A program made the position numbers and the translations under genes. Positions 2,323-46,800 of a stretch of DNA of 64,000 nt are shown in pieces. Positions within the stretch are counted from its first letter, which is position 1; the number at the start of each line of letters is the position of its first letter. Source of the stretch: Tubulanus polymorphus (lineage: Eukaryota; Animalia; Nemertea); contig NC_134034.1 of the NCBI RefSeq assembly GCF_964204645.1, positions 6,236,914 through 6,300,913 of the forward strand, in the 5' to 3' direction. Under the pieces are notes generated by a model. That model searched no databases, was not told the origin of the DNA, and saw only the letters and a program-made list of their open reading frames with translations.

Positions 2323-2804
2323 AGCCTGGCGCACACGAGGCAATTTTCAGTCGCCGGTTGCTGCAACCAATTTTTGAGCAACCGTTGAGCAATCGATCGC
2401 TAGGTGTCGCCCGTATGCGACCACTGGCGACGGAGAGGCGATTATCTTTCGCCCCAACCATTTTTATCATGTGACTTGTCAAGATGGCCACGCTACTAAC
2501 CTGGGTGATGCCGTATTTGGAAGTATCACATGATAATTATTCGTTTAGTCATTGGCTAGGTTGATGAGGTGCTCGTTGCTTTGCGTCTCCAGCTACCGCA
2601 CATGGGCAACTCCCGAGCGACAAGCAATTTTCCGTCGCCCAATATCAAACATGTTTGATATTGGGCAACACGGAGCAATTCCTTTCGACAACGAGCAATC
2701 GCTGTCGCCCCTTGCCACAGACGAGCGATTTTTTCGTTCGACGCCGAGCAATTCGGGTGGTTGCTCGAGAATTGCTCGAAACTGTCGCCTGTGTGCGCCA
2801 GGCT
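2323..2804. mobile_element. PIF/Harbinger-type MITE
   Basis: TIR agcctggcgcacac...gtgtgcgccaggct flanked by TTA on both sides (2320-22, 2805-07). Confidence 0.8.
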
Positions 2805-3919
2805 TTAGCCACCTGTATATTCTTGCAATAACTTTGACTTACTGTCTTGACCTTCAGCAGCAAGTTATTATCTAATGCTGTAATATACAGAGTATGTGAA
2901 TAAAGCTCAGTTTAAAAAAGGATCAGGGCCTCTTAACTTAAAGTTTGATTATTTGCAGATCCGCTAATATAATGATTCCCAATCATGGATATCAATCTGT
3001 TTGATTCAGGTTGTCAATGAAAATAAGGCACCTGTAAAACTCAAATAGTATACTCCAAACTACTCACTTCTAATTACTTGCACTTGGTTTGACGAAAGAG
3101 AAGCCTTTATTGAATGTCCAATCCCTTTGAGCACATGGCTTCTTAAATATTCGACACAATATCACAAGTCATCTGTCAATACATCAGTCATCTGGAGGAA
3201 AAAGGTACAATCTAATCAGTAAAACAGACAAAATTAAATGGGGATTTTGTAACAAGTTGCTGGACAACGGTTTTCAATTAACACTTACCATAACACGACA
3301 CAAAACCTCTTTTTCAGTAATTTTTTCTTGCTGAAAGTACATATACTTGTTTCATTTTTCAGGTATATGTAAACATAATTTACTACTTGAGGAAATATAT
3401 ATATGTGATATATGTGAGGACATATGACTTTTATTTACTCACTGTCTAAATCAATGGAAATTAATGGAAAACTTCATTCTATAAGTTATAATATAAATGT
3501 AGAAATAATTGGCATATACTGTGCAATACCTAATCGTTCAGTATACCATAATTATCAGAATCGTGGTGACTACGGTTAGTCTTCTTTCGCTACTAGACAC
3601 CAATGACAACGACGGGCAGCCAGACCGTACTAGCGCAAGTGCGCCGCCACCTTCGACCGATGACTTGGTCGTTTTTTACTACTGGAATCAACGACGACCG
3701 TTGCCAGCCTCCAAGTATCCTTGTGGTGGTAGTTCCATCTGTAGAATTTCAAATGTAAGAAATCATCAGTAATAGAATACAAACCAGCCTCTTTCAGTAA
3801 TGGACAGATTGTGATTAAAAACGCTCATGGTGTAATCTAGGCCTACTTGTTACTTACATTTAACATTACATCCCATTCATCATGAATGAAATTAAAATAA
3901 AGTTTTGCATTTGATTTAA

Positions 3920-4512
3920 CCCTTTAACCGGCAAGTATTTTTCGGTCTATGAGAGATTTTGGACCTTGCAAGGGGAAAACTTAATAACTCAGTAGATATG
4001 AGTGATAACCCCATACTGTATGTTTTCTATGAAAGCTCTTTTCACAAGCTTTCAAATGATACGATCTTTGCGAACTTTGGGGGTTACCTTCAGGGTCTGA
4101 TCCCAAGGTCACAGATCCCAAGGTCATCCAGATTTTTGGGCCACCCATAATAAAAAACTGTCATGAGATTCATCCCAATATGAATTATCATCAGAATCTT
4201 TCATTACTATGTCCAAAATATCAGCCAAACTCACTAGAGAACGTCTTTAGTGCATTGGCCATTACTACTAACGATATTCTCAATTTTGGAAATCTGACCC
4301 ACGTGACACGTGGTTTCCATACCCCCTTCTACATGCCAAATGTATGATATATCACTTTCCAACCTTGTTAGGCATTGTAGGCCGTCTGGTGTCGCCATCT
4401 GCTGATAGGAAAATTAGTTAGAATGCTTCACTGAAATTAATACTTGACTATTCTATTCACTATAGCTGGTCTATTCAAATTGGTCGCTAGCGACCGATTG
4501 CCAGTTAAAGGG
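3920..4512. mobile_element. piggyBac-type MITE, copy 1
   Basis: TTAA|ccctttaacc...gttaaaggg|TTAA; homologous to 10167-11042. Confidence 0.85.
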
Positions 4513-5292: not shown

Positions 5293-7440
5293 TTAGAGTC
5301 TTTTCCGCACATATAATTTCTTCTGGGGTGAGGGGGCCAGTTCGAAACAAATCATCATTTTTCGTTCCAAGGTTATTGATATACCGATCGCGAAAATGAA
5401 AATGACTAACTGTGGTCGACCCACTGCATTTTCTGGCATTAAACAGTGATCAAATTTTACTTCAGACAATTGGGATAATTCGAACAAAAACCCATACCAG
5501 TATGTTTGCATTTCCTGATGTAATTCTTCGTCCCAACTAATTTTAGGTCTCCAAATATTTTGCAGTTGTACTTCAGCTTTCGCCATCTTTCCATGGACCA
5601 ACGAATCCAGTGACATCGTAAATCTCTGCAACGAAACTTAGTATTATGCGTTTAGTTAAGATTGCTTGAACGGTCCAGTCTTTCAACGATTTCAGAATTT
5701 TCGGTACTTTCAAAAACAATCTGCAAACAGTCTGGATCCCAAACCAGTCCAAGCATTTTCTCTGCTTCGGTAATTGGTTTTATTCTCGCTTCATTTACAA
5801 TTTTAACTGAGAGATCTGCATTCGACATCCATTGCTTAATCTCAAAGTGATAGCCTGCGTTGATAGTCGTATCGACGGCCGTAGGGAATTCTTTGCTAAA
5901 TTCCTCGGTGTTTAAATTCATAGCGATATTCACTAGTGCTGGCCAGCAGTTATCACCGAAACTTATTACGATTAATTTATTAATCATCTGGTCCGCGATC
6001 CATTTCAAAATTTCTCCAAGAGGTATCCGTCGTAGATTTTTGCATACGTTGGACGTGTACGCACTTGATGATACATTTTCCTTACATCTCCGATAACTAC
6101 GCAGTTTTCTCGAAATCTAAGAATGACTGTCGATTGATCATTCAACAAATCTGGTCCTTTCATCTGAAAGTCATTCAACGAATGTTCCTTGAACTGTTTC
6201 TTCGAATTGAAAACTGGACAAATCGGCATACTTTCACTATCTCAATATATTGGATGATGATTTAAATACCAGATGGGACCATCGTAATTTCTAACTCGTA
6301 GTCTGATACTTTTCCAACTTGCTTCTGACACAAGGGTTGTCTGACCAGTTGCGACTCTGGGTCTCATAAAATCGGCACCATGAAGAAACGGATGGTGGAA
6401 ATATTCGCAATGTTCATGAATACACCTTTTCTTTTGACGACACGGTTGGCCAAATTTATGATGATAGGGACAATAGTCAGCCAGCCAACAAAACCAACAA
6501 CATCTCTTCTCCCGAACAGCGGCTAACCTTTGATCTGGCGTCATAGCTAAAAATCAAGGGCACTCGATTACCACGTGCGAATCTTCAGCCGAACAAATGC
6601 AAAATCTTATCATCGGCTTTGGTGCATCGGATCGCAGATGTGAGGTTACACTTGCTACAGATGGTGATTGAACAATATTTGTTTTCCCGGACTTATTGGA
6701 TTTCGATTTAGAACACCGGGCGCTACTTGATCTACGCTTCACTTCAATTTCTTTACGCATCCACTTGAGCAAATTTTCAATGTTGTTCTCCAAATCGTTA
6801 TCTACTTGATATATCGCCCAACATTCGATATCATTGGAATTCAATTTACTTTCTAACACGGCGATCGTGGTACTATTGTCCAAATCAGAGGAACACTTCA
6901 ATTTTTGCAAAAATGGTTCTTGCTCGGTGCATTAAATGGTTATGTTCTTCAAACTGCTGAGCAGTGGTGACGTTTGGTGCTTTATTGAATTCAGAAAAAA
7001 AATCGTCGCTTACTTTTCGCGCGTTTCCATAGACAGCATTCAAAAGATCCAAGGCTTCTTCAATATCGCGCACTCGTCAATCCATTTTTTTTTGCTGAAT
7101 TCGGTAAACGTAGTCTTATACAATAGAGTTTCTCTTGGTCGGAGTATTCGTCGTAAATGAAATTAAAAATCCTTTCGGAACTGGAAATAATCGATCGTTT
7201 TTCGGCTTTCAGAGAACTGGTTTTTATTTTGCGTTGATCTGGATGGTCTGAATATTGAATTATTAGAGAATCTCAGAACTTGCTGGCCGTGTCATCATAT
7301 CATTCTTGCATTTTATCCATCCATTTTTCCTCAGTTTCGAGCTCATCTTCGTGCACTAGTTTTATAAACGATTCATGTGTGAGTTCTACTTTATCCCTTG
7401 CCTCGGAAAAGTCATTTACTTTTTGCTTGACATCACTAAG
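5293..7440 (-). pseudogene. BEL/Pao LTR retrotransposon gag-pol relic
   Basis: Fragmented ORFs with Pao motifs: WYLNHHPIY, GPDLLND..ILRFRE..IGDVRKMYHQV, KMLGLVWDP, ISWDEEL; Cys-His gag knuckles; many stops and frameshifts. Confidence 0.85.
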
Positions 7441-23367: not shown

Positions 23368-25945
23368 ATGCGAGGTGACATTCTCATTCGCCGTGCCGGC
23401 ACGGGTGACAGTCTTGAATCCGAAAAATCACTCGCGAATGGCTGGAGGTGGGCCTGGCTGCAGGCTGACGTAGGTGGAGAGTTTCTCGTTAAATACATAA
23501 GAAAAATTCAAGCTCTGGGGAAAGCGTATTGCACGGCCTGTGATGCTGTTAAAGTACGATACCAGGGGAAAACCTGCACTGACAGACCACGTTGCGTCGA
23601 ATAAACATCGGAAAAACGTCAAAGATATTTCGTCTAATTACGTTCTCCCAGGTTTGTAAATCTTTTTGCTATTATTTTTTCTGTAGTAGAATCTTATAGG
23701 ATGCCTAAAGGTCGGCCTAATAATTGTTTTTTGCTGCACCATGTGAAGGTTGAGTGGATTTTTTTCTTTTTTGCATGCATTTTTAAGTCTAAAATTATTA
23801 AATTTTATCTTTTCAGGGACTTCCTGTGGCCAGTCTGATGAAACTACTTATGGTCTTCATCAGATGTTTGGCAAGCAACAGACTGTCTTTCGAGATCCAC
23901 CAAAACGAAATGTACCAGAAGAAGACAGGGTTAGTAACATGGAATCCATGTTACTCGGGATTATGGCTGAACATTCGCTGCCGTTCACAGCATCACCTGC
24001 TTTAATAGAACTGTCTAAAGCCATGGCAGCTGACAAGACTGCATTATCATCATTGTCAGTTGATCGAACAAGTGCATCTTATAAGATGAAGTATGGTATT
24101 GCGAAAACTTTTGAAAACCAGTTAAAAGATAAGCTAGCTGTAGTGCCGTTTTCCTTAAACATTGATGAAGCCACCAGCTCCAATCATTCTCGTGTACTGG
24201 CTTTACTTGTGGCCTACCTTTCGCTAGAGAGAAAGCAAGTTCTCGTGGAACATCTCGAATCTATTTCAATGTCGACCGTCAATTCCCAGACTGTTTATGA
24301 CTGTATTACGAATGCATTTGTGAAACGTGAACTTCCCTGGTGTAATGTTATTTCCATATTGATGGACAGTTGTAGTGTTATGCGTGGTTCGCAGCAACAT
24401 TGCTCCACATTTAATTGATATTGATGGCGACACTTGTCATCATGCTCATAATGCAAGTCACAAACTGTGTAGACCATTTGAAAGGTATCTGGAAAACTTA
24501 TACAATGACCTGTACAATGATTTCAACTTCTTAACTGATCTCGTAGTCGCACTGGAAGAGATATGTAACTCGCTTGGTATTACATTTCGGATGCCACACA
24601 GATTCGTTGGCCATCGATGGCTTTCTGCCTATGATGCTACACTTTCGTTTTTGCACTTGAAGGATGCTTATACTGTGTTTTATTACTCTTTTTTGTCCAA
24701 GAATGACAAAGTGCTTTATCTATCATCAATTGTTGAGATTTATAAACGTCATGGTACGTCTACTGAGGCTCGAGATCACATCAAAAGTATCTTGCTGAAA
24801 CTGTCATCTAAAGGATTAACAGAGGCTGGTAAAAACCGCAAGCAACAAATCTACGAGAAGATTGTAATTAAGTCTAAGGGAACGGTCTTGTACGCATATT
24901 TCTATGAGTCTGTACTCCCATTTCTCAAGAAATATGTAATGACGCTGGAAATGAATAAGCCAATGATACACGTTTTGTATGACATGATAACTGACTTAGT
25001 CAGGGACTTTCTCTCCAGTTTTGCTAAACCAGATATTCTCTGTAAAGCAGCATCTGGTCAGAAATGGTTCGTCTGCATGACTCCCTAGGTCATGAAGCCA
25101 AATGCGTGACAAAGAGATGTTTATTGGCAGTAAAGCTGAGGGACTGTAGGACTGAAGGACTTAGGAAAGACGACTCCCTCCGTGTTAAGTTTTTGAACAT
25201 GATTTCTACAGCGTATGTTGATTGTGGAAAATATCTCATTATGAAAATGCCTCTTGAGAATATGGCCCTCTTGTATTTTTCTAGTGTAGACCCTGCTTGT
25301 CGTGGCTGTTATAATGCGCTTAAATACATGCTTCAAATCCCGAAGAAAGTATTGACAACTATTCTTCAGCCAGAAGAAATTGAATGTTATGAAAAAGAGG
25401 TGAGAAAATTCCACTCTGATCCGGCTTTTTCTAAGATTCCGTATGATCCAAAATGCGATAGGGTGGATACATGGTGGTGCAATGTGTATGAGACAGGGGC
25501 ATATCCGAATCTTTTTAAAATTGTTGCAGCGGTGCTATCGTGTTTCCATGGACCCAAAGTTGAAGGTTCATTTAATGTAATGTCAGACGTGATTGACAAG
25601 AGATCCGGACAGATGCATATAGAGACTTACAGTGCTGTACAATCTGTTAAGTACAAATTGCGAGCCAGTGGAAAAACTTCTGTTCAGTATTTCAGAAGAA
25701 CAGATGTTCTGAATGACCCAATTGATTCAAAACTCCGCAATAACATGAGATGTGCATTTAAAAAATATCGTAGTGTAGTTGATAAACGTGAAGAGGAAAA
25801 AGAAAGACAGAAAGAAAAACTGAAACTGAAAGAATCCGAGAGATTGACCAAAAAAAGACAGAAAGAACTTTCATTAAAATCCATCAAAAAGGCACGCCTT
25901 GTTTTTCTTGAGAAATCAAGAAAAAGAAAATCCTCTAAGAAATAA
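23368..25945 (+). pseudogene. hAT-superfamily transposase pseudogene inside a MINDY4 intron, with its own intron (~23652-23816)
   Basis: N-terminal Zn finger (KAYCTAC...DHV..NKH), FSLNIDEAT, ILMDSC, DTCHHAHN (CxxH-like), RWLS, VDTWW, hATC-like LSCFHGPKVEGSFNVM; frameshifts near 23560, 24390 and 25070. Confidence 0.8.
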
Positions 25946-32322: not shown

Positions 32323-33566
32323 TTTTGCCCACTTGGGACTTTAGTCCCAGCGGGCTATTGCGTTCACTTTTCGTCCGTCGTCCGTCCGTCCGTAGAAGGA
32401 ATCCAGTTATTTTGGGAAGTTTTGAAGACGCTTCAATTTAATGTCTTGATATTTGGGTTACACATGTATCTACCCTAGACACATCTTCAGCCCAAAAACT
32501 GGTCCTGTCAGATTCAAGATGGCCGACTGGCAGCCATTGTTGTTCGCCAAAATCAGCACTTTTTACACATTTTTGAACTTTTTGAGGGAAATTTTGAAGA
32601 AGCTTTGATCAATTACCTTGATCTTTCGGATATATGTGAATGCCTCCAGGGCCCATCAGCATAACAAAAATTGGGTCGATCGGACTCATGGCCGTCCTAT
32701 GACCTTGTCAGTGCCCAAAAATGTTAATTTTGGCCCAAATTCTGAGTCCTGTAGCTTCCTACTGGTTTATCATTTCTCATTGCAATTTGTGATGGGTATT
32801 CTTTGGAAAGGGATGTTTTATACCTGAGACAGGTATTTTTCATCAGCCAATTATGACGCAATTGGTGGCCATCTTTGTGTCAGCAGTACTCATTCGTAAG
32901 TGGGGAAAAGTTTTTCCACATTATATTGATACCTAAGCGTATTTTGCTACCACAATCATTTAGAAAGTTGTAGCTCATAACGTGTTCTATGATTGTGGTG
33001 AGTTTGAAGGTCATTGGTTTTTGTATATGGCCACCGGGGGCGTTGAATTAGTATTTCTATATTATATTTGTATCAGTGCATATTTTGTAACCACAATCAA
33101 TTGCAAAGTTGTAGCTCATGACATCATCTATGATTGTGGCAAGTTTTAAGGCCATTAGTTATTCTATATGGTCACCAGGGGGCTGAATAGTAGAATAACT
33201 TAGTATTTCCTTATTATATTGGTACCTAGGCATATTTTGTTACCATCATCAATTACAAAGTTATAGTTCGTGACATGTTCTATGATTGTGGTGAGTTTCA
33301 AGGTCATTGGGTTTTGAATATGGTCACCAGGGGGCGTTGAATAGTAGAATAACTTAGTATTTCCATATTAAAGTGGTAACGAGGCATATTTTGTTATCAC
33401 AATCAATTACAAAATCATAGCTGCTGACATGTTCTAAGATTGTGGTGAGTTTCAAGGTCATTGCATTCTGTATATGGTAACCAGGGGGCGTTGAATATTG
33501 AAATTATTAGATTGTTGAGCATTTGGAACCACTTCCCAAGTGGGCATGGTGTCCCTGGACCCCTAG
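32323..33566 (+). mobile_element. Full-length HINE family A copy
   Basis: Same termini and structure as 20856-22095; inserted at a TT with no TSD. Confidence 0.85.
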
Positions 33567-33800: not shown

Positions 33801-34099
33801 GCGCAAGTGATTAAATTTACATATCATACTGGTATTTATATAGAAAAAGACGAAGCTAATTACAAACAATTTCAAATAACTGAGTGACAAGATAATTATA
33901 ATACAAAGATAATTTATTACAAGGCAAAAGAGTGTCATATGACACACAACAACGGCAAGAAACTTCTCAACTTATGGAAACAGCAACGCCATCCTGCACC
34001 CGATTGTCTCATCAACCATTCAAAATATAAACTCTCTCTCGAAGAAACTGAAGTTTTACGTTACGCCTTAAAACACCGTTCTTTTACTATGAAAATATC

Positions 34100-34262
34100 A
34101 GTAAGGATCTAATGAATGAAAACATGAAATTGAGTAACCTGAGAGTAAATTGAGATCCTTACTGATATTTTCATAGTAAAAGAAAAGCGCAGCCAATATT
34201 AATCCTCCTGCTATAAGATAATGCTTCAAATCACTTTTCCCAGTTGGAATGAATCCATCCAT
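34100..34262 (-). CDS. Small viral-type membrane protein ORF (MDGFIPTGKSDLKHYLIAGGLILAALFFYY...), 3' end rearranged
   Basis: Starts in TAATTTTTTTC-TTAAA-TAAATG like the other viral genes; one hydrophobic segment. Confidence 0.45.
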
Positions 34263-34312
34263 TTATTTAAGAAAAAAATTAAAAGTAATTTGAAATATCT
34301 TATTTTGAATAA

Positions 34313-34888
34313 TTAGAGTTGAATCATTATTTTTGAGTTATGATATTTTGATTTAAGATGGTGTGATTTATTGCTTCGAGTATAATATTTTCCACAATAA
34401 CATAACGCTTTTTCATTTGGTTCATATTTAGGTGTTTCGATTTTATTTTCTAAGTTACATTGAATTCCAACATCTTTGAATGATTTTTCATTTGGAATGT
34501 CAGGGGTAAATCTTTTTTCTTCTACTCTGAAAAACATTATATAGCATTCTCTAAAAGGGCAATAACGTAAATGTAAAAATAAAGATTTATGTGAATTCTC
34601 ATTATTAAAAAGTGATCGTATTTCATCTGTAATTATTAAATGTTGATCTATTTCATCAAATGTTGTGATTTTTGGAATTATTGTATTGAATAAGATTTTA
34701 TCTTTATCTTTCGATAACTCTATCATTAGATAATGATTTTTAAACATTAATTCAGTAATATAGTTCACTTGAAAACGAAAACGTCCAGTTTCAATCAAAT
34801 CTTTAATAGGAATGAAATTTCTAATTGTAAAATATTTTTCTAATTCATTTAAATCAATATCGTTGAACTGTAGTATCTGTTCATTCAT
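34313..34888 (-). CDS. Viral-type hypothetical protein with a C-terminal C2H2-like Zn finger
   Basis: 191-aa AT-rich ORF, TAAATG start, CYCGKYYTRSNKSHHLKSKYH. Confidence 0.6.
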   Translation of the reverse strand: MNEQILQFNDIDLNELEKYFTIRNFIPIKDLIETGRFRFQVNYITELMFKNHYLMIELSKDKDKILFNTIIPKITTFDEIDQHLIITDEIRSLFNNENSHKSLFLHLRYCPFRECYIMFFRVEEKRFTPDIPNEKSFKDVGIQCNLENKIETPKYEPNEKALCYCGKYYTRSNKSHHLKSKYHNSKIMIQL

Positions 34889-35917
34889 TTATTAGTCATC
34901 ATTTATTAAAATTGATATTTTCTTCAACTCATTAATTACTCGTTACTTTTATGTGAAAATCAAGAATTTAACATATAAATATAAATATTCACTGTTTTAA
35001 ACATGAATTATTTCACTCACACTTTTGATGTTAAAAATTTATTTTTAATCATTCGAAATCTATATTCGATCTTATTTTTCTAGATTATTATGCGTACATT
35101 TCACTCTCACTTTTAAAACATGAAATTTATTTTAAAATATATGAAATTCATTAAAATAATGTTTTAGATATATGAATATTTTAAGAGTAATTGGGAATAC
35201 GGGGTCCATGGCAAAGGTTGAAGGGTCGGAAAATAAATTCTAGTGTGCGAGAATTTATTTTTCGACCGTTCGACCTTTGGTATGAACCCCCGTATTCCCA
35301 ATTACTCAAATAATAACCGATGGAAACTCGAGCGCGAACAGTTGCTTTATTGAAAACCTCAGACATGCAACAACCTCGTTTATTAACAGCGCGAAATCGG
35401 TCTGCGGCTCAAGTTCGAATAAACGTTTTCACGACACCATCGAAAAACTCAGAAACAATCCGGATATAAAAATTAGTTCATTCGATAAGGGAACTGGTAT
35501 TGTGAATTAAGAACACTCGAAAAAATCATCTAATTATAATCAACGAGACCAAAATTTGTAATTTTCTCAGAAAACATGTAATTCTGAAATTTTTGAAAGA
35601 ATTTATCCAAGTGGCATTCAACCTGGTTAATTGTATGGCTTATGCAAAGTTCATAAAGATAACTTTCCTTTCAGACCTGTAGCTTCGATCATCGGCACTG
35701 CTAAATACAATCTGGCTAAGTATCTGGATAAAATTATCAAACCACTTATTTCTACCTGGGAGTTTCTGGAAAGGCTTAAGGTTTTCATTTTTCACCCTTC
35801 TGATATACCCATTAGTTTTGATGTCGAATCTCTGTTTACAAACGTACCGCTCAAAGAAACTATAGACCTAATTTCGGATTATACCTACAAATCAGATTCC
35901 AAACCCTCGTACGGTAA

Positions 35918-36137
35918 GGCTAAACAAAAATGATACCTTGTTTCTCCGCAGCGGCCGGGTCATTTTTGTAAAATATGATCAAATTTATAAACAGTTCATT
36001 TCTATAGCGGCCGGGTCTGTTATGGTAAAATTGATCACGATTTTAAAAAAAGTAATGTATAGGGTAGATAGGCGGCCGGCCGGGTCAACATTTAAGCTCA
36101 GCAGAGCGGAGAAACAAAGTATCAATTTTTTTTAGCC
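35918..36137. mobile_element. PIF/Harbinger-type MITE inserted in the PLE RT
   Basis: TAA|ggctaaacaaaaatgataccttgtttctccgc...gcggagaaacaaagtatcaattttttttagcc|TAA; the RT frame resumes after it. Confidence 0.85.
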
Positions 36138-36673
36138 TAAGGCTACGTTTAAACAACTTCTCAGTATCGCAACATCTGGAATGTTTATGCACAACAATCG
36201 TCTATTTAAACAAGTTGATGTAACAATGGGCAGCCCATTAGGCCCTACTTTAGCTAACTTCTATCTGGCACACATTTTCAGAATTTACTATTGACTGATT
36301 GCAAATTCAAACCCACATTGTACCTTAGATATGTTGATGACATTTTCTGTATTTTTCGAATTAACTCCAACTACAATTCATTTTTGATGCACTAAATACT
36401 ATGCATCCTAATCTGAAATTCACTTTTGAACTTGGCCCGAACATTTTACCCTTTTTAGATACTCTCATTCTAGCACAGACTGACACTGGTAGTATTGATT
36501 TCATCTCATGCGTCTATAGAAAAGCTTCTAATACTGGATTACTTTTGAATTTTAATGCAATGTGTCCTTACAAATGGAAATCTGGTCTTATCAACAAGTA
36601 ATTGGAAAATGAGGGTTTCATTCGAGAGGTCGGCACATCACTCATCACCACAAGTAATTTTTTTTCCTAATAA

Positions 36674-39600
36674 ATGGGAGACCATGACCACCAAACAGAA
36701 AATATTAACGTTAATAAAAATCAATATTATTGTCCATATTGTAAAAAATTAATCGATAAATCTAAAAAATCTCGACATGAAAAAACTGCAAATCATAAAA
36801 AAAGTTATAGATTTTGAAACACCAGAAAATTCAAATGAAAGAAAAGAACAATTAGAAAATATGAAAAAAGATGAAATTAAATGTATTGTTTGTAATGAAT
36901 TTATAGTAAAAAGGAATTTTAAAAGACATCTCGAATCACAAAGACACAAACAAAATTAAAATAAAAATATTTTAGGAACAGAATATTTTGATGATAACAA
37001 GTTTTGATTGACAAGTAAAAAACCAGCTTCAAAAACTAAATCTATTTCAAATAAACCTTATATGGAAAATGTTAGAAATTATATCGATCACTACATATAA
37101 TATTATATATACTATTATTATCACTAGAAATAAAAGATACAACATAAATTTTAGAAACATTACGTAGTAAAATTGGACCGGCAGCTATTATATTTAGATT
37201 TTTTAAAGGATCAACAATAGAAGATTATAGCAAATATATTGAAATAATGGAAAAAATAATGGACCTTGTAACAGATGTTGAATATCCAAAAATTAGTATT
37301 TCTGGAAAAGTAAGTTTTATGAAATCAGAACTAAAAATGGAGTATAATATTCAAACACATTCTGAAGAAATAATTTCAAAAACACAAATAAAGGAGAAAT
37401 TAGAAAAAATATTTAATGAATTTAAACGTCATATTGAAGAAAGATATTTTGAGGGTTCTGGTTTAACATTGAATGAAATTATATTTTTAGATTTAAATAT
37501 TTATAATACAAAAAGGAATAAAGCATCAAAAAGTAATACAATGTTTACAAATAATTCAAACTTTACAACAGAAAAGGATATTAAAGCATCATCTTATATT
37601 AAATTACCATTTACAACAAAAGCAGTAATAAATGTTCAGAATGAAGATAATAAATGTTTTCTATGGTCAATTGTTAGTTGTTTACATCCAACAGAAGGTA
37701 TAACGCATAGTTTTAGAATAACAGATTATCGGAAATATGAAACATTATATATAAAATTGATCAATATCCAGTAACTATGAAGATGATTCCTAAAATAGAA
37801 AAAGTTAATAATTTGAAAATAAATGTATTCGAATAAATGCAATTACCAGAGACAAAAGGTGAAAATATTAAAGATTATACATTAGAAGCTTTATATTTAA
37901 CAGAATATTATGATAATGAAAATGTTATACATTTATTATACTATGAAAAAGATGAAAATAACATTATATGTGGTTAAAACAAATTGATTTATTCTTTAGA
38001 ACAGAAAGTGATTTCAACAGTCATAACAAAATATATTTATGTAGAAAATGCTTATCTAAATTTAGAACTGAAAATGCATTACTAAAACATAAAGAATTGT
38101 GTGATAATAAAGATTTTTGCAAATTAATAATGCCAAGAAAGAAAGATTGTAAGTTGAAATTGTAAGTTTAATAATCATAAATTTAAAAATATTGTTCCAT
38201 TTGTTAGTTATGGGGATTTTGAATCGTTGAATAAAGAATTAACTGATCAAGATAGAAAAGAAATATAAAATAAAAAGCAATTTTTAAAATCAATGGATAA
38301 AGGAAATGAATTAAATGAAGACATAATTCAAGACCCACCAATTATAAACACAATTAAAAAAGTTCATCAAAGAGCTGCTGCTTATGGAATTTATATAAAA
38401 TCAAATTATACTGGATTATATGCAAGTCAATATATTTCTTTTAGAGGTGAAAATGTTGTAAATGAATTTTGTAATAAAATTATAGAATTAGAAAGTGATT
38501 TTGTGCAAATTATTAAACAAAAATAAAAGAATAGTTATGACAAAAGAAGATGAAATTGATTTTAATTATGCAACTCATTGTTGTTACTGTGAAAAACATT
38601 TTTATTCATTTGATAAAAAAGTTAGAGATCATGATCATTTAAATTCAAAATATCGTGGAGCTGCTCATGAAGATTGCAATTTACAAGCTAAGAAAGTTAA
38701 TTTCATATCAATATGATTTCATAATTTATCAGGCTATGATACCCATCTATTCATCAAACAATTATCAGGAAAATGGGCGCAAGTAATCAAGAAATAGAAG
38801 AATATAATGCTATGAATGGTGCAAATGTAAGAAAATATGATTTTAAACTATTAGCTAAGACATCTGAAAATTATATTTCATTTCAATTTGGTTGCATTAG
38901 ATTTTTAGATTCTTATAGATTTTTAGCAACTTCATTAGATAATTTAGCAAAAAGTTTAGTTGATAATGATTTTATAATAACTCGACATTATCCAAATGAA
39001 CAAGATTTTAATTTATTGAGATTTAAAGGTGCAATTCCTTATTCACTCTATAAAACACATGATGATTTTTATGTAACAGAATTATTAAAAGAACAATTTT
39101 ATGATCAATTAAAAGAGGAGTATGTGAAAGATGAAGTGTTTAATAGAACATTAAATATTTGGAATCATTTTAAGATAAAAAATCACGGTAAATTAGTAGA
39201 TTTATACTTAAAATCAGATGTTATGATATTGGCTGACATATTTGAAAAATTTAGAGAAGTTAATTTAAATCATTTTAATGTTGATCCTTGTTATTGTTAT
39301 TCAAGTCCTGGTTTAACCTGGCAATATGGTTTAAAATATACAAATGTAGAATTAGATTTATTAAAAGAACCAGACAAAGTTTTATTATTTGAAAAATCAA
39401 TTACAGGTGGAATTAGTGGTGTTATGGGAAATAGGTATTTTAAAGTAAATGATGAATATAAATTATTGTATATTGATGCAAATAATCTATATGGTTGGGC
39501 AATGATGCAACCTCAACCATACAAAAATTTTATATTAACAGAAGTTGAAAATGATGATAAAACTGATTGGGAAAGTGCAATTATGGGTTTAAAAGATGAA

Positions 39601-41786
39601 GCACCAATTGGTTATTTCTTTGTAGTTGATTTAGAATATCCTGATAACATAAAGTTTAAAACAAGACACTAACCATATTGCCCAGAACATTTAGCCGTAG
39701 ATGATAGTTATTTAAGTGAATACCAGAAGAAAATAAAACCGAAAGATCATGTTTTTACAGAAAAATTAATATTTACTCAAAATAATAAATACAATTATAT
39801 TGTTCATTATAGAATGTTAAAATTCTATCTAAAACAAGGAATGAAATTAAAGAAAGTACATAGATATATTGAATTTAATCAATCGATGTGGTTAGAAAAA
39901 TATATAGATTTTAATACTCAACAGAGAACCATATCAAAAACAGATTTTGAAAAAGATTTCTTCAAATTAATGAATAATAGTTTTTATGGAAAACATGTGA
40001 ATATATTAGAAATAGAAATGATATTGAATTAGTAAATAATTCCGAATGATTGAGACATTTACAATCAAGTCCTAGACATTTAGGAAATAAAAGATTTGAA
40101 GATTATTTAACAGCAGTAAAATTAAACAGAACGTCAATGAAATTTAATAAACCTATATTCATTGGTTCAACTGTTTTAGAACTATCAAAATTATTAATGT
40201 ATGATTTTTATTATAATGTTTTACAACCACATTTTGGGGAAAAACATATTGAAATATTATATTTTGATTCTGTAACAGCTGATACCCCAATATTATTGAA
40301 ATACAATAACCAAATATTAATAAGAAGAATTTCAGAAATAATTCCAAAACAAAATGAACTTTATATTTCATATGGTGAAAAAGAATTAATACAAATAAAA
40401 GGATTAACGGATGTGTGGACAAGAAATGGATGGAAAAAATTAAAGAATATTATAAGGCATAAAACAAATAAAAGAATTTATAGAGTTAGAACTAAATTTG
40501 GGTTTGTTGATGTTACCGAGGATCAAAGTTTAATTAGAAATAATGGTGATGAAATAAAACCAACTGATATAAAAATTGGAGATGAATTATTACATAAGAG
40601 ATTTTACCCAAGAATGAATCATATGTCATTTGATGAAATAATTGATAATATTTATAACATAGAACCTGTAACATTAGAAGAATAAGAATATTTTATCAAA
40701 GGATTTTTTATGGGCGATGGTTCAGCAGGTGTGAATAATTATGTTAGTCGCACTCGATATTGTTGGTATTTATGCAATCAAGATTTGAAATTATTAGAAA
40801 GAATAAAGAAATACTGTGAAGAAGTTTATTCACACAAAACATTTTGAATCATGGATGTTATGAAATCATCAGCAGTTCATAAAATACTTGTAAATAATCC
40901 TAAAGATTTTGTTATAAAATATAATGATGAATTCTATATTCATGCAATAGTCAAAGTAATACCTCAACAAAAGAAAAGATAGTTCCAGATTATGTATTAA
41001 ATGCAAAAGATAATTTAAGAAAATAGTTCTTCATTGGATTCTACGCAGCAGATGGTGCTAAAAAATTTACGAGTTCTCCAGTAATAACATTTGCACAAAA
41101 AGGAAAAGTTTGTATATCAGGATTAAATATATTATGCAATTCATTAGGTTTTAATATGAATATTGGATTGATTAAATCTAAACCAAATTGTTTTATTCTA
41201 AGGCACACAGAAAAAGAAATAACTGAAGAAGTTAGAGATTTATTTGAAATATATAACCCAACAGATTATGTTTATGATTTATCAACTGAAGATGGAACAT
41301 TTAACTGTGGATTTCCATTAATAGCGGTCAATACGGACGCCTACATACTAAAAATCAAGACAAATGATATAACAAAAGACTTAAAAACATTAAAACATCA
41401 TTTTGACTTTAGCAATTATCCAAAAGATCATGAACTATCTAGCAATGATAATAAAAAAATTCCTGGTAAATCTAAAGATGAATTAGGGACGATGAAATGA
41501 TTGAATTTGTTGGGATAAGAAGAAAATGTATAGTTATAGAACAAAAGATCATGAAGCTAAAAAGTTAAAAGGAATAACAAAACATGTGGTTGATAAACAC
41601 ATAGAATTTCAAGATTATATAAAGTGTTTATACAACTCAATTGTAATGAAACATAAAATGAATTGTTTAAAATCAGAAGATGACGAGATGTACATTAATG
41701 AAGTTGAAAAAACTAGTTTAAATCCGTTCGATGATAAAAGATATATTTTGGGTGATGGAATAAAAACATTACCTTGTGGCCATTAA
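36674..41786 (+). pseudogene. Protein-primed family B DNA polymerase of Polinton/adintovirus type, with N-terminal Zn fingers and an intein (the 36674-37000 Zn-finger part may be a separate gene)
   Basis: INVQNEDNKCFLWS; ExoI YGDFESL; DHDHL..KYRGAAH..CN; ExoII FHNLSGYD; RFLDSYRF; ExoIII YLKSDV; motif A YIDANNLYG; motif B FFKLMNNSFYGK; motif C YFD|TD; KIPGKSKDE; FDDKRY..TLPCGH; many stops and frameshifts. Confidence 0.92.
40269..41332 (+). mobile_element. Intein with LAGLIDADG homing endonuclease inserted in PolB motif C
   Basis: Block A SVTADTPILL directly after YFD; block B VDVTEDQSL; LAGLIDADG-like FIKGFFMGDGS (40692-40724) and FFIGFYAADG (41027-41056); block F YVYDLSTEDGTF; ends LIAVN|T; removing it restores ILYFDTDAYILKIKT. 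Confidence 0.92.
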
Positions 41787-43095
41787 AAAAGAAAATCAAT
41801 ATCATCATTCTCGAAATCACTACTGGTTTCATCATTTTTACTTAATTGTTTAGGTTCTTCCATTTCATATTTCTCTTTTAAATAAAATTCTATATTATTC
41901 CACATTTCATCTCGCTCTCTTTGTTTCTTTTTGTTCATTAATTCATCAAATGGAATTATAATATCGATGTTTAAAAAATGTACAATCTTATTTAAACAGG
42001 ATTCATAATTAATTGAATCTGTTATTTTATTATCCACATAAAACTTTAATATGTTTGTGAATGTTTCTTTTATATTTTCCATATCTTCTTTTGTTAATTT
42101 AGGTTTTTTATAATAATCGTTAAATAATCAATATAAATAAATTTTCCTTTCTTTTGTGTTAAATGATGATGGAATAATTGTTTTTATTATATCTTTTTTA
42201 ATTATTTCACCATTTTTATTTTCTATCATTTTCATTTTGTCAAGCCATTGCTTGTATTCTGGTGTATGATCTTCCATAGAAAATATCTTAAAAATTGCAT
42301 CTAGATATTTTCATTTTGGTTCTATAAGAATATCTCTGGTTTTTTCATCACCCCATAAATTCCTTTGCCATCCACATTCATTAGAAAATACCACAGAATC
42401 TTCTTGTCTTAAGTACACATAAATACATTGTGGGCATTTTTTTAATCATATCTTGGCAATAGATCTTCATTAAGTTCTTGGTATTTTCTTACGTTTTCTT
42501 TATGTTTCATTGTTTTATTATGTAGATTTGAATTACTTGTTGTAATAATCAATTTACAATATTTGCAATAATATGTTTTTCTTACTAATTCATTTTATTG
42601 TTTTTCCAACTTTTCAAGTCTTTCTTCATTATCTGGTAACGTTTTCTCATATTTTATGTTTTCTAATATATTATTTTTTCTTTCATTGAATTCTGCTTCA
42701 AATTTATCAGAAATGTAAACTATATGTGCTTTACGAAATTGATGATTTTCCCAATCTTCTACATTTTCAGTGCTATATTTTATTCGACAAGGCTCACAGA
42801 AATGATCTTTTATATTATTCTTGTCATAGAATAAGAAAGGTCTTTTTCAAATAATTTCAGGTTCAGTTTCAACCGAATCATTATTACTTTCGTTACTATC
42901 AACATTAACCTTTGAGTCATCAATTTTACACTTCTCTGAATGTTTTTTAACATAATTTCTTGAGAATAATTTATTACAATTTGGGCAGTTTATTTTAGGG
43001 GGTTTATAATTTCTATCATGTTTTTTCATATGTCGAGCCATATTACTTTTTCTTTGAAGTTCACCACAAATTTCACATCCTATCTTCTCATCCAT
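41783..43095 (-). pseudogene. Viral multi-zinc-finger protein, convergent with PolB, broken by stops
   Basis: CEICG..NMARHMKKH, CPNCNK..KHSEKC; reading through stops gives CEPC..HQFRKAH, YYCKYC..HNKTMKH, CPQC; C-terminal ORF 41783-42082. Confidence 0.6.
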
Positions 43096-43162
43096 TATTT
43101 CGGAACAATTTTATTAAGATTAATTTTCGATGGTTCGAGGTAATTTTTTTGTGTTATAAATA

Positions 43163-43898
43163 ATGGTTGAATTAAAAGAATATAGAATATTTGTTGATTC
43201 TAGAAAACTGTTAAATTATCAATCACATAATTTACTAGTACAATTGTGTAGATTTAAAATTAATAAATATTAGTTTATTTAATTCTTTTTATAATATATC
43301 AGATAAAACTATTGATCATAGAGGTTATGCAGTTATTAACAAAAATAAAAATAAATGGTATCCTCTTTTTCTAAAACCAGGGTTATATAATTTAGATACA
43401 TTACCTCAAGAAATTTATAGAAAAGCCTTGCACAAATTAGGTAGTGATTCCAGATTTAATATTATATTTTCAAAAAGTGATAGTTCTAATAAGATAAAGG
43501 TAAGGTTAACTAATGATGAAAAATATCAATTTTTAGTTAAAAAACCTATAGCTAAACTATTGGGAATTACACCAGATAAACTTTATTCAAATGTTGATGC
43601 TACACCAAACTTAATACCTTACACACACTTTTATATTTATTACAATTTAATTGATGCTACAAAAACATTCGAAGAAACTAAAGATATAACATGTAATTCT
43701 AGTTTATTGAATATTTTACCATTAAAAATGTTAAGCAATTTGGAACACAATTAAATCCTAATTTAGCTGAATGATTTTAAGCCCTGTATTTCACAATTCA
43801 ATAATTTTAAGTTAGAAATTAGAAATCATAATGGATACTTAATTGATTTGGATCGTTTTCCTGTAATTTATGAATTAGTTATAAGATGTAGAGAGTAA
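43163..43898 (+). pseudogene. Putative minor capsid (penton, single jelly-roll) protein
   Basis: MVELKEYRIFVDSR..; SLFNSFYNI; LKPGLYNLDTL; AKLLGI; FYIYYNLI; LLNILPL; FKLEIRNHNGYLIDLDRFPVIYELVI; this pattern is typical of Polinton/PLV pentons; frameshifts present. Confidence 0.6.
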
Positions 43899-43914
43899 TT
43901 TTTTCATTATATAA

Positions 43915-44255
43915 ATGAATATAACTGTTGGACCGAGTATATGTTTTGGATTTGATTTTAAACGTGAGAAAGAAATGAAATTTGATATTAATGATGTAAT
44001 AACTCATATAAAAAATATTGCATTTACTAATGAAACAACATTTGAATATGAAACAACAATACATAAAGACACTTTTAATGTAGAAAAGGATACTGATTTA
44101 ATTAGAGAGTCTTTAAGATTTTAAGAATTAGATGAAGATTTTATTATTAATGATATTAAAAAAATAATAACTGAAATATATGAAAATGAAACTAATAATA
44201 TTATAAAGGTTGAAATAATTATAACTAAGATAACTAAATATTTTGAAGACAGTAA
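43915..44255 (+). pseudogene. Small viral hypothetical protein with an internal stop
   Basis: TAAATG start; the frame continues past TAA at 44122-24 to ~44255. Confidence 0.45.
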
Positions 44256-44271
44256 ATTTTTTTCTAAATAA

Positions 44272-44532
44272 ATGGCGGATCAGAAGTGGATAATAACTGG
44301 TTTATATAATGGAGCATTATTATCAGTGGGAACCGTTGGTTATACAATGGTATTAAAAAAAGTATTTAAAATGGGAAGTATTAATGTTGATCAATTTGAT
44401 ATCAATGATATTTTGAAATTAACATTAGCAGTAACTTTATCTAATTTAAAAATTGATTATTTATATATAAATATATTCCTCCTATATAAATACGTAATAT
44501 TTTTACTAAATAAATGGCTCCTGCAATTATAA
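44272..44532 (+). CDS. Small viral hydrophobic protein
   Basis: TAAATG start; GLYNGALLSVGTVGYTMVLKKVF..DINDILKLTLAVTLS..IDYL; resembles small ORFs of invertebrate Polinton-like elements (from recall, not searched). Confidence 0.55.
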   Translation: MADQKWIITGLYNGALLSVGTVGYTMVLKKVFKMGSINVDQFDINDILKLTLAVTLSNLKIDYLYINIFLLYKYVIFLLNKWLLQL

Positions 44533-44942
44533 CTATTATAGGATCGGCAATTGTTAACGCTTTAGCATTTACTGGTGGTGGGTATTTATTTAAGCATATT
44601 GATAAAAATAGTTCATTAGCAGAACAAAGAAGACATAACTTAGCATTAGAGAAATACAATAAAGCTGCAGAAGAATACAGAGAAAAGAGACAAAATTACA
44701 CTACATTGTGTAATTTTCTGATTATATAATTCTTTATTAATGTAATCAATAGAGATTCTCAATCAGTTGATGAAGCTATGAGTTTATATAACGCAGTAAC
44801 AAATAAAGAAAAATTACATCTGTATAAACCTAAATTATCAGATTATTATACACCAAGTAGTGAACAACAAAAATATGAAATAATTTGGATTTTAGGTGGA
44901 ACAGTTATTGTATTATTTGTTGCTTATAAATTTACTAATTAG
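44514..44942 (+). pseudogene. Viral membrane-associated protein, frameshifted
   Basis: MAPAIITIIGSAIVNALAFTGGGYLF..AEQRRHNLALEKY..; continues ..KPKLSDYYTPSSEQQKYEIIWILGGTVIVLFVAYKF; hydrophobic N- and C-termini. Confidence 0.6.
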
Positions 44943-44961
44943 TAATTTCTTTTCTAAATAA

Positions 44962-45396
44962 ATGGATGATAAAGTTGATAATATTGATATTATTCCTCAT
45001 GATAAAAATAAAACTAAATTAAAATTATATTTGGAAAAACAAATATTAGAATCTGAAAATGATTTAAAGATTAAAAAGAAAAAATATTTAAAAAGTAAAA
45101 TTATATATTATTTTATTATTAGTATTTCAGCTACAATTAGTTCTGTAATAACATTTCTAGCATTATTCTCGCCATTAACACCTTTAGCTATCTCAATTGG
45201 AGCTTTAGGTTTAAGTTCAAGTGTATTAACCGGCATAAGTTCAAAATTAAATATAACAAGTTATAAAGAAAAAATAAAATCTTATATGAAAGAAATTAAT
45301 AAATTAAAACATACATTAGATTATACAATGAGTTTAAATGGTAATATAACAGTTAAAGAACAAGATAAATTATTTAAAAAATTAATAAATTATTAA
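44962..45396 (+). CDS. Viral two-transmembrane protein
   Basis: Intact 144-aa ORF, TAAATG start, two adjacent hydrophobic helices flanked by Lys-rich segments. Confidence 0.65.
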   Translation: MDDKVDNIDIIPHDKNKTKLKLYLEKQILESENDLKIKKKKYLKSKIIYYFIISISATISSVITFLALFSPLTPLAISIGALGLSSSVLTGISSKLNITSYKEKIKSYMKEINKLKHTLDYTMSLNGNITVKEQDKLFKKLINY

Positions 45397-45411
45397 TTTT
45401 TTTATTATATA

Positions 45412-46800
45412 AATAGATAGTTTTCCAAAAGCTTTCCAATATAATAAATCAATTAGATATAATATTCCTGCAATAGATTTTAATAAAGATATTTCATATA
45501 GAAATGAAGTTTTAAATTCATTAATTAATTTAGATATTTATGTTACTGAAACTAATAATTTTAATGCAAAGATGGAAAATATATTTCATGTATATCTAAT
45601 TAATTTTAAAAATTGAAAGATGAAAAACAATGGCTATTAAAATCTAGTATGAAGTATTGGCAGAACCAATTAAATTTTGCAGTTTATTGTGCAACAACAG
45701 GTTGTGGAATTAGTTGGAATGATCATTTGAATAATTCTAAATATAAATTAATTCAAAGTTTATTTAGATTCCATACATACTTTCAAATAAGATTAATATT
45801 AAATGAATTAGAGTGTCCTTTACCAGGATCTAGGTATTTTAAAGAATAAGATAATGATATTATATTAATAATATTATTATCAAAGTTTTATAAAATTTGT
45901 AATGAATATAATATAGATTTAAATAATTATGATTTTAGAACAAAAATTGGAACAATAAGATGTTTTCCTTGCCCTAAAAAGATTGCACAATATTGAGCAC
46001 TTCCCATACCATCTAATAGTTTTTATAATATCTATAATAATAAATTAGGCTATGGCAAAATAGAAACTTTGGATTTAAAAACATTAAATTTCAATAAATT
46101 ACCGAAATTTTATGATAATTTAAAACAAGAAAACAATAATGGTTGGGTTTATTTCATTTTAGAAAATAGTGAAGATTTTACAAAATCAGGTATACAAAGA
46201 ATAAATCAATCAATTAGAACTTATTTGATATGTATTGTATTCTAGGTGCACAAGTTGAAACAAGATCCCCGATAATTGGAAATTTAAATACATCATTCGA
46301 TACACAAAAACAATTCAAAGTATTATTTGAAGATTCTATTCATAATGATGAAAATATACCCATTCCAGACAACATTGTAAGATATCTAAATTATTTAGAT
46401 AAATCTCATGCAAGATTAAATTATTGTATAGGCCCTAATTTGTTAATTATTTCAAATGATTTAATATTAAAAATGGGAAATAATAATTGATTTTAATAAT
46501 CTAATTAAAACTGCAACAATACATAATAAGTTTGGATTAAATGATATAAATAAAAAGATTATTACTGCTCCAAAACTAATGGAAGGTGACAAAAATTAAA
46601 AAACATATTCAATCAACAGAAACTAAAACTAAAAATATTAAATTGGATAATGATTCTAAAATAAAAGATTACAATACTACAGAAAATATTAAAACTGATA
46701 ATATTCAACATGAAATAATTAAAACTTATAATGATAATAAATCCCATGAAAATACTAAGTTAGCTATTACTTGTATAGGAATTGTAATAGGAGGAATATT
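45412..46800 (+). pseudogene. Conserved Polinton-associated hypothetical protein, C-terminal TM cut by a HINE
   Basis: YWQNQLNFAVYCATTGCGIS, LFRFHTYFQIRLILNEL.CPLPG, G..RINQSIRTY.YCILGAQVETRS; probable start mutated to TAAATA. Confidence 0.55.

Follow-up and report, generated by a model that had tools for sequence, protein, structure and literature searches.

This locus raises the question of how Mavericks without an RNA polymerase transcribe their genes, and of whether the animal ones are autonomous viruses or virophages. We looked at it in a window of 64,000 nucleotides (the whole stretch of DNA analysed) which, judged from its sequence, contains a decayed AT-rich Maverick/Polinton (Table 1). 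Its protein-primed polymerase gene (pPolB) is colinear with that of locus L027, without introns, and matches the L027/P0003 pPolB at 76%. AGTA-type termini were found at 36597, 35186 and 35306, with no matching right end or target duplication, and the right end of the element was not located in the window. In this partial copy, tblastn with the L024 and L010 integrases detected no rve integrase remnant, and L001, L037 and L055 queries detected no remnant of a major capsid protein or packaging ATPase, the window copy being truncated; L024, a member of the clade, has an integrase-like ORF (a label from sequence). The family is integrated and multicopy: four runs of a single study contain thousands of contigs that are 80-99% similar. 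IMG/VR scans with the window pPolB, the VLTF3 alignment, the 45.6-kb gene, the L037 capsid and the 44514 family returned no loci.

Table 1. Features of the decayed element, in window positions
Feature	Position	Strand	Remark
Bipartite start motif (34281-34260) and short 54-aa ORF	34098..34281	-	
191-aa ORF, family not assigned	34313..34905	-	TAAATG at 34891, another at 34905; no T-run
Hairpin, two terminus-like arms (AGTAATTGG...) pointing outward	35186..35306	no strand	
Inserted GC-richer fragment, presumably of a retroelement (RT-like)	35320..36596	+	no Pfam match; limits approximate; family label assumed from its motifs
Probable left terminus, 5'-AGTA...	36597..36654	+	resembles L027 sequence upstream of pPolB, by eye
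Bipartite start motif of pPolB	36655..36676	+	start in frame with L027 pPolB N-terminus
Protein-primed family B DNA polymerase, stops and frameshifts	36674..41786	+	PF03175, E 1.9e-13
Intein with LAGLIDADG endonuclease, broken, at YxD|TDS site	40269..41332	+	61% identical to intact P0012 intein
Zinc-finger and VLTF3 (poxvirus A2-like) gene, broken	41783..43095	-	PF04947, 25.3 bits, C-terminal piece
Bipartite motif (TAAATAATG variant), divergent promoter, then decayed probable minor capsid/penton-like gene	43141..43898	+	lead only
Bipartite motif and short decayed ORF starting 43915	43896..44271	+	
Bipartite motif and small hydrophobic gene, ATG 44272	44253..44532	+	homologs in L034, L036, L037
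Bipartite motif and membrane/coiled-coil gene, ATG 44514	44495..44942	+	homologs in L034, L037, L055
Bipartite motif and 144-aa two-TM gene	44943..45396	+	SLATT-like match weak, below cut-off
Bipartite motif, start codon broken, then decayed gene(s), family not assigned	45394..46800	+	

An earlier note on this DNA had pointed to a TAAATG start resembling poxvirus late promoters. All the exact sites that it listed are present, at 36671, 43912, 44269, 44511 and 44959 on the plus strand and at 34891..34886 and 34265..34260 on the minus strand, as are the near matches TAAATAATG at 43157 (ATG at 43163) and TAAATAG at 45410, which has no ATG in the window copy. Between 34.1 and 46.8 kb, TAAATG was found at 7/9 gene starts, taken in part from the earlier list, against 0.63 predicted by the upstream composition of each gene (AT-matched, p<=1e-5) and against 27 of 467 other ATGs (Fisher 1.7e-7). 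Three of the four homology-anchored starts (36674, 43095, 44272 and 44514) carry the exact motif; where the 43095 gene truly starts is uncertain, the intact relative beginning about 8 codons earlier. The enrichment over an AT-rich expectation is thus one of placement at starts and not of clear overall excess, since 34 copies were counted against 25.0 +/- 4.9 and 15 of 300 shuffles reached 34. Between 34100 and 46900, 21 copies lie on the plus strand and 14 on the minus strand.

The signal extends upstream of the start. Eight window sites have a TAA and T-run followed by ATAAAT, with the TAA exactly 16 nt before TAAAT, while shuffles reach at most 2. At no more than one mismatch this bipartite pattern, which was defined only after its sites had been viewed, has 8 matches against a shuffle mean of 0.22 (maximum 2), and none in 49.5 kb of flanks. 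With the best of 14 spacings 9 matches were seen, one of them off-target at 43272, against a maximum of 5 in Markov shuffles. The T-run reported upstream of the starts was therefore recovered as a common TAA/T-run element, but at this fixed spacing in place of a loose 10-20 nt. That the upstream TAA is the previous gene's stop is true at 43896 and 45394 (directly after the stop at 44943) and not at 36655, 43141 and 34281, which have no tandem stop. The minus-strand gene at 34888 has TAAATG and lacks the T-run. Vaccinia late promoters have, among other T, one at the 10th base ahead of TAAAT (PMC11980589); this T is present at 8/9 window sites, 4/10 close-relative sites and 7/17 other sites, and close relatives have an A-run around that base with the T-run nearer the initiator. 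With TAAAT and G over the ATG, the poxvirus-late-like start signal is real and conserved.

The T-run itself is part of the promoter and not a terminator. Its proposed role as a TTTTTNT early terminator found no support, as it is absent after 8/8 convergent stops, yet precedes divergent genes: in L027, L010 and L055, where convergent stops abut or overlap, at none of the eight convergent gene ends do five T lie within 20 nt of the stop (by eye), and convergent genes have no 3' signals between them. Coding-strand T-runs reach 0.72 of expectation, but A-runs are depleted as well, and the value is therefore not counted in favour of a terminator.

The motif was also found beyond the window. TAAATG stands at 10/11 starts of intact close relatives (1.10 expected), at 11/13 starts of L048, L052, L055, L058 and L102, and at 7/7 starts of L010, an unrelated lineage, despite 38% GC, whereas the remaining 107 pPolB loci have it at 22/599 starts; these motif-bearing lineages were chosen after the survey. 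Mavericks encoding TBP and/or TFIIB (genes for one or both occur in L078, L095, L101 and L117) have TAAATG at 0/49 starts and A/G at -3 in 40/49, the opposite of the motif's T at -3, which in a poxvirus scheme would not be transcribed. The survey points to two or more ways of transcription in pPolB elements, which may be told apart from sequence. TAAATG elements do not form a single pPolB clade (4 changes; AU p 0.011 under a simple model, for a group named after the tree had been seen), a pattern that a signal following a helper, or moving by recombination, would produce. No such motif in Polintons was found in the main texts of the literature searched, whose supplements could contain motif analysis.

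The element also encodes, as its sequence indicates, a VLTF3 (poxvirus A2-like) late transcription factor that had been overlooked in the earlier note. The C-terminal piece in the window passes the PF04947 cut-off of 25 bits by a narrow margin, hhalign gave 62.7% (E 7e-5), and P0123 scored 0.93 in the ESM Atlas with 200 shared features; full-length P0001, P0123, P0124 and P0125 have no Pfam match. The predicted model (pLDDT 77) has a zinc ribbon and a helical domain, and its best BFVD matches are cowpox and entomopoxvirus VLTF3, the model leaning towards giant viruses as 5/8 alignment rows were giant-virus VLTF3. Neither PDB sequence searches nor Foldseek yielded a significant match (top row TFIIB, E 0.28). 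A HMMER search found 3 relatives, and word-index searches none beyond the query set. The gene is convergent with pPolB, their stops overlapping, and has the start context AAATAATG. It is present in the window and in L027. PF04947 was absent from 12/12 records searched and from 134/134 proteins of selected loci, a set with few integrases, ATPases or polymerases, which left no way to correlate the motif with VLTF3. This homolog is the sole transcription machinery in the window element, where no RNA polymerase, VLTF1 or VLTF2 was seen. VLTF3 homologs in Polintons have already been reported, in coral polintoviruses and in MELD/PLV groups (PMC11131425, PMC8502044, 10.64898/2026.06.19.733378).

Taken together, a defined 22-nt promoter and a matching late factor encoded by the element make the transcription question testable. 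The explanation that we favour, with a probability of about one half, is that the motif is a poxvirus-late-type initiator at which the RNA polymerase of a large cytoplasmic DNA virus starts transcription during co-infection. The TAA/T-run and ATAAATG at fixed spacing before nearly all genes would be the promoter, the element's own VLTF3 is predicted to assist the helper polymerase, and integrated copies would be expressed only once a helper had infected the cell, on the pattern of mavirus. TAAATG lies on the pPolB genes of L023, L026, L027, L010, L048, L052, L055, L058 and L102 and on the VLTF3 gene of L027; with polymerase and VLTF3 genes both carrying it, no early class is apparent from which a self-contained cascade could begin, and one promoter class is common to polymerase, VLTF3 and structural genes. 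Against this reading, a helper would have its own VLTF3, so that an element doing without a helper has the clearer reason to carry one; the T at -10 is kept in the window but in only 4/10 close-relative and 7/17 other sites; and 6/7 exact window sites also read AATAAA.

The helper need not be a poxvirus, as the promoter would point to a poxvirus-like RNA polymerase and the intein to contact with giant viruses. No helper virus was found among the sequences scanned; an exact-motif IMG/VR scan gave 26 matches, 0 of them before an ORF of at least 60 aa. The nearest viral kin of the intein are giant-virus PolB inteins (38-42% identity), and giant-virus loci with related inteins have TAAATG at 37/250 starts against 25 expected. 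Polinton inteins form their own clade apart from those of giant viruses, and the same intein allele, proposed as a mark of the helper, was found in no virus among 51 loci. The intein link would hence record an old exchange and not a present poxvirus partner. More tentatively, and doubtful as it stands, this clade of genome-integrated, probably animal Mavericks may be hyperparasites of a pox-like cytoplasmic virus, with all their genes under a pox-late promoter and the helper's polymerase pulled onto their DNA by their own VLTF3. In that case start-codon context, TAAATG or TAAA+ATG versus Kozak plus TBP/TFIIB, would sort Polintons into helper-dependent and nuclear types and would indicate in which hosts to look for new poxvirus relatives. 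If the helper reading holds, integrated copies would record past infection by pox-like viruses in hosts with none known.

In the main alternative, VLTF3, with a zinc ribbon and a putative TFIIB-like cyclin fold, could recruit host RNA polymerase II to the motif in a helper-free nuclear programme, a possibility that we consider unlikely but worth weighing. Integration of the element is nuclear and reaches high copy, a VLTF3 gene occurs in both the window and L027, and the TBP/TFIIB genes of the four loci named above mean that Mavericks do carry their own initiation factors. The VLTF3 model matches cyclin-fold proteins including TFIIB (Z 5.5-6.3, below the tool's trust level and a lead only). 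Mriyaviruses, which lack an RNA polymerase, keep VLTF2/3 and are thought to be nuclear (PMC11253617). However, the VLTF3 and pPolB genes lie under one and the same motif, which would require the factor to be packaged or to leak beforehand; L023, L024, L026 and L010 use the motif with VLTF3 absent from the sequence seen (partial contigs); initiation at TAAAT without slippage would leave a 2-nt leader; and about 6 AATAAA per kb are tolerated in coding strands. For the latter, motif elements have 108 coding-strand AATAAA against 110 expected (6.1/kb, undepleted), four TBP-encoding loci 33 against 43 (z -2.1; AWTAAA 81 against 101, z -2.7), and nine loci in which neither the motif nor TBP was seen 220 against 217, likewise undepleted. 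This depletion test, which compared such loci with one another, is weak and unspecific. The VLTF3 gene and the lack of AATAAA avoidance would fit NCLDV-type transcription.

AATAAA also matters for a less probable reading, in which it ends the upstream mRNA and/or a U-rich leader with UAAAUG aids translation or re-initiation, while the real promoters lie elsewhere. Six of the seven exact window sites do read AATAAA as well (AATAAATG), tandem genes are 3-30 nt apart in several relatives, and one L024 gene overlaps its predecessor. At two TAAATG sites checked among host copies no variant reached 15%, which fits any functional signal; overall 0/12 TAAATG positions were variable against 24/311 positions, too few to test. 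Against an RNA-level signal, the motif precedes genes that are divergent or close to a terminus, where no upstream transcript needs ending (36655, 43141, and 6/7 genes of L010, which are in divergent pairs), and L010, with AATAAA at 1/7 and the forms GTAAATG and TTAAATG, makes TAAATG the invariant. Read directly in the sequence, the T-run has no AG after it and is no splice or trans-splice acceptor; the T at -3 makes for a poor Kozak context; and the TAA of TAAATG is normally not the upstream gene's stop, which disfavours stop-start coupling. A TATA box was rejected too, as it would put the transcription start inside the ORF. That the motif reflects AT-richness, or is an inherited signal that no polymerase now reads, is very improbable: although the window copy is dead and TAAATG is common in the element without overall enrichment, placement and fixed spacing are far above AT-matched controls and intact relatives, one at 38% GC, retain the motif at nearly every gene, and the chance reading is largely refuted.

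Among known systems, poxvirus late (and intermediate) promoters, as in vaccinia, are alike in having TAAAT then G/A over the ATG (PMC11980589, PMC5294985, PMC4542343), a T-rich block about 10 nt upstream and VLTF3 (A2). The window motif differs in belonging to a pPolB element in which no RNA polymerase, VLTF1 or VLTF2 was seen, in serving all gene classes and in adding a fixed TAA at -16; the upstream A-run of close relatives is nearer the intermediate type. Sputnik, mavirus and Gezel-14T, virophages and PLVs that have a promoter in common with a helper, are likewise integrating pPolB/PLV-type elements with NCLDV-type promoters (10.1101/2022.07.28.501842; 10.64898/2026.07.28.741278), but these belong to protists and have Mimiviridae-type motifs (TCTA, AAAATTGA) and helpers that are known or inferred, whereas the window motif is pox-late-like, in a probably animal host with no helper known. 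Entomopoxvirus-associated PLVs, proposed as poxvirus hyperparasites, are likened by description only, the main text (PMC11296320) leaving promoters, VLTF and inteins unmentioned, and the main texts on VLTF3-bearing polintoviruses of corals and MELD/PLV groups (PMC11131425, PMC8502044, 10.64898/2026.06.19.733378) are without promoter analysis. Yeast pGKL1/2 have their own RNA polymerase, capping enzyme and upstream UCS, with neither integration nor virion genes, but are AT-rich linear pPolB elements in which a TAAAN initiator gives 5' poly(A) leaders by slippage (PMC6211774).

The start motif proved to be a real feature of the decayed Maverick/Polinton. All sites listed in the earlier note were present, and TAAATG was found at 7/9 gene starts compared with 27/467 other ATGs, 0.63 being expected from local composition, with a list of starts partly guided by the motif (homology-anchored starts were exact in 3/4). 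Enrichment over the AT-rich expectation holds at starts but is not clear element-wide (34 TAAATG versus 25.0 +/- 4.9 expected). That the motif is a relic or due to chance is highly improbable given the excess at starts. The upstream T-run was also confirmed, though not at the loose distance of ~10-20 nt first proposed: at eight sites a TAA lies exactly 16 nt upstream of TAAAT with the T-run in between, a spacing that shuffles gave at most 2 times, rising to at most 5 when the best among 14 spacings is taken. This bipartite pattern, defined post hoc once the sites were known, was absent from the flanks of the element.

Scans with an alignment of the protein-primed polymerase (pPolB) gave at least 118 loci, the metagenome part being the best 80 of 131. 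L023, L024, L026 and L027 group with the window in a single clade of strong support and are the closest intact relatives among the matches listed. TAAATG was found at 10/11 of their starts (ORFs chosen mechanically; L025 and two L024 ORFs, duplicates or truncated, were left out), and L027 has the same pPolB/VLTF3 layout as the window. Loci selected from the survey itself gave 7/7 (L010, GC 38%) and 11/13 (L048/52/55/58/102), and the remaining loci among the matches listed 22/599. In the comparison with nuclear-type Mavericks that the earlier note had proposed, four metagenomic TBP-encoding loci (L078, L095, L101, L117, the last two also with a TFIIB-like neighbour) had TAAATG at 0/49 starts, with a purine at -3 in 40/49. 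The TAAATG lineages are not a single pPolB clade (AU p 0.011, for a group named after the tree was seen).

Other start styles were seen. The four TBP-encoding loci have no TAAA start signal. In L001, L003, L007, L017, L037 and L103, a group chosen for this, TAAA lies <=8 nt from the ATG in 60/76 starts, preceded by an A-run then a T-run resembling poxvirus intermediate promoters; no TBP was seen among the scanned proteins of L001, L003, L007, L017 and L103. L002, L004, L006, L009, L012 and L016 show an (AT)n-rich style, ATATATAATG, resembling upstream regions of giant-virus loci L124, L138 and L140. L010 also carries a single 503-aa ORF (2740-4251) with a protease-like N-terminus, labelled by sequence motif, fused to an rve integrase with chromodomain.

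The motif stands upstream of divergent genes (window 43141; 6/7 L010 genes) and before the terminus-proximal pPolB, and is therefore independent of any upstream gene. Since no T-run occurs at the 8 convergent gene ends inspected, where stops abut or overlap (41783-41786 in the window), it belongs to the start signal, and its reading as the early terminator TTTTTNT was abandoned. No AG follows the T-run, and the base at -3 is T, poor for Kozak. The likeness to poxvirus late promoters held in part. Vaccinia late promoters have TAAAT then G across the start codon, preceded ten bases earlier by a T (available part of PMC11980589); the window anatomy fits, with this T at 8/9 sites, but it occurs at just 4/10 in close relatives, whose sites look nearer to intermediate promoters. 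In vaccinia and yeast linear elements, TAAA-type initiators yield poly(A) leaders through slippage (sections of PMC4542343, PMC6211774).

With a probability of about one half, the element's genes are read by the RNA polymerase of a helper virus, which would transcribe them all from one promoter class. This reading is favoured because a single promoter is common to all gene classes, pPolB and VLTF3 included, and because AATAAA is undepleted in coding strands (6.1/kb) against ~20% depletion in TBP-encoding elements, although nine other loci likewise lack depletion, which makes the latter test unspecific. Virophages comparably use their helper's promoter (excerpt of 10.1101/2022.07.28.501842). 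Against the helper transcription put forward earlier, an exact-motif scan of IMG/VR found no helper, and giant-virus loci are only mildly TAAATG-rich (37/250 starts versus 25 expected). A rather doubtful alternative is that VLTF3 and host Pol II read the motif, as the polymerase-less mriyaviruses, which keep VLTF3 and are thought nuclear (PMC11253617, in part), might suggest. An RNA-level signal is less likely still: 6/7 exact window sites read as both TAAATG and AATAAA, but AATAAA was rejected as the invariant, being present in 1/7 in L010 where TAAATG is constant.

The C-terminal piece of the window VLTF3 is barely above the Pfam cut-off, and full-length homologs had no Pfam match. The protein P0123 grouped with VLTF3 clusters in ESM Atlas (0.93), and profile comparison with five giant-virus VLTF3 gave 62.7%. 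A model (pLDDT 77), biased towards the family by the giant-virus VLTF3 rows in its alignment, best matched cowpox and entomopoxvirus VLTF3, and cyclin-fold proteins including TFIIB weakly (Z about 6). VLTF3 in Polintons is already published (parts of PMC11131425, PMC8502044, 10.64898/2026.06.19.733378). Protist virophages and PLVs are known to share promoters with their helpers; PLVs were found together with entomopoxviruses in PMC11296320, the available text of which does not mention promoters. No description of a TAAATG promoter for Mavericks emerged from a search of main texts, nor was the motif in Polintons mentioned in the accessible parts of 10.64898/2026.10.13.758929, 10.64898/2026.07.28.741278, 10.1101/2024.03.23.586382 and PMC5294985.

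An intein with homing endonuclease occurs in Maverick pPolB of the window, of proteins P0012 and P0020 and of L045. It is patchy over the relatives' tree (2 proteins of the set contain it, and in 58 the site is empty by the pattern applied) and absent from L027, the closest relative listed. P0020 represents a 136-member cluster, on long contigs. The nearest IMG/VR kin of the window intein are same-site inteins of giant-virus-type PolB (38-42%), and the four Polinton inteins, two being N-terminal pieces, form their own clade (0.98) beside giant-virus PolB inteins. The intein is a record of former co-infection with a large DNA virus, followed by its spread from one Polinton to another; of the co-infection proposed for its transfer, this old contact is retained, and a present-day poxvirus partner is not indicated. 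The available part of PMC11071308 mentions that polinton pPolB has been invaded by inteins.

The element is an AT-rich island (34.1-46.8 kb; GC 20-26% outside an inserted retroelement versus 35-44% in flanks) of a family with high copy number within one organism. No remnant of integrase, ATPase or major capsid was found in it, so this copy is partial.

Features of the element and its flanks
Feature	Window position	Remark
pPolB, broken	36674-41786	PF03175 match
Intein	40269-41332	inside pPolB
Zinc-finger/VLTF3-like gene	41783-43095	convergent to pPolB
Penton-like gene		candidate (lead)
Small membrane genes		homologs in other Polintons
Hairpin, 121 bp	35186-35306	two element termini, facing outward
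Second inverted repeat, 32 bp	34079-34184	perfect
Tandem repeat	32885-33485	four copies of ~150 bp, adjoins element
Decayed transposons	23747-25945, 191-778, 5293-6931	presumably DNA-transposase-like, gag, BEL/Pao-like

Among the flank transposon labels, gag alone had Pfam support, a weak match; these transposons point to an animal as the probable host. The hairpin and the second inverted repeat may represent a non-autonomous element of miniature size or a fold-back at the terminus.
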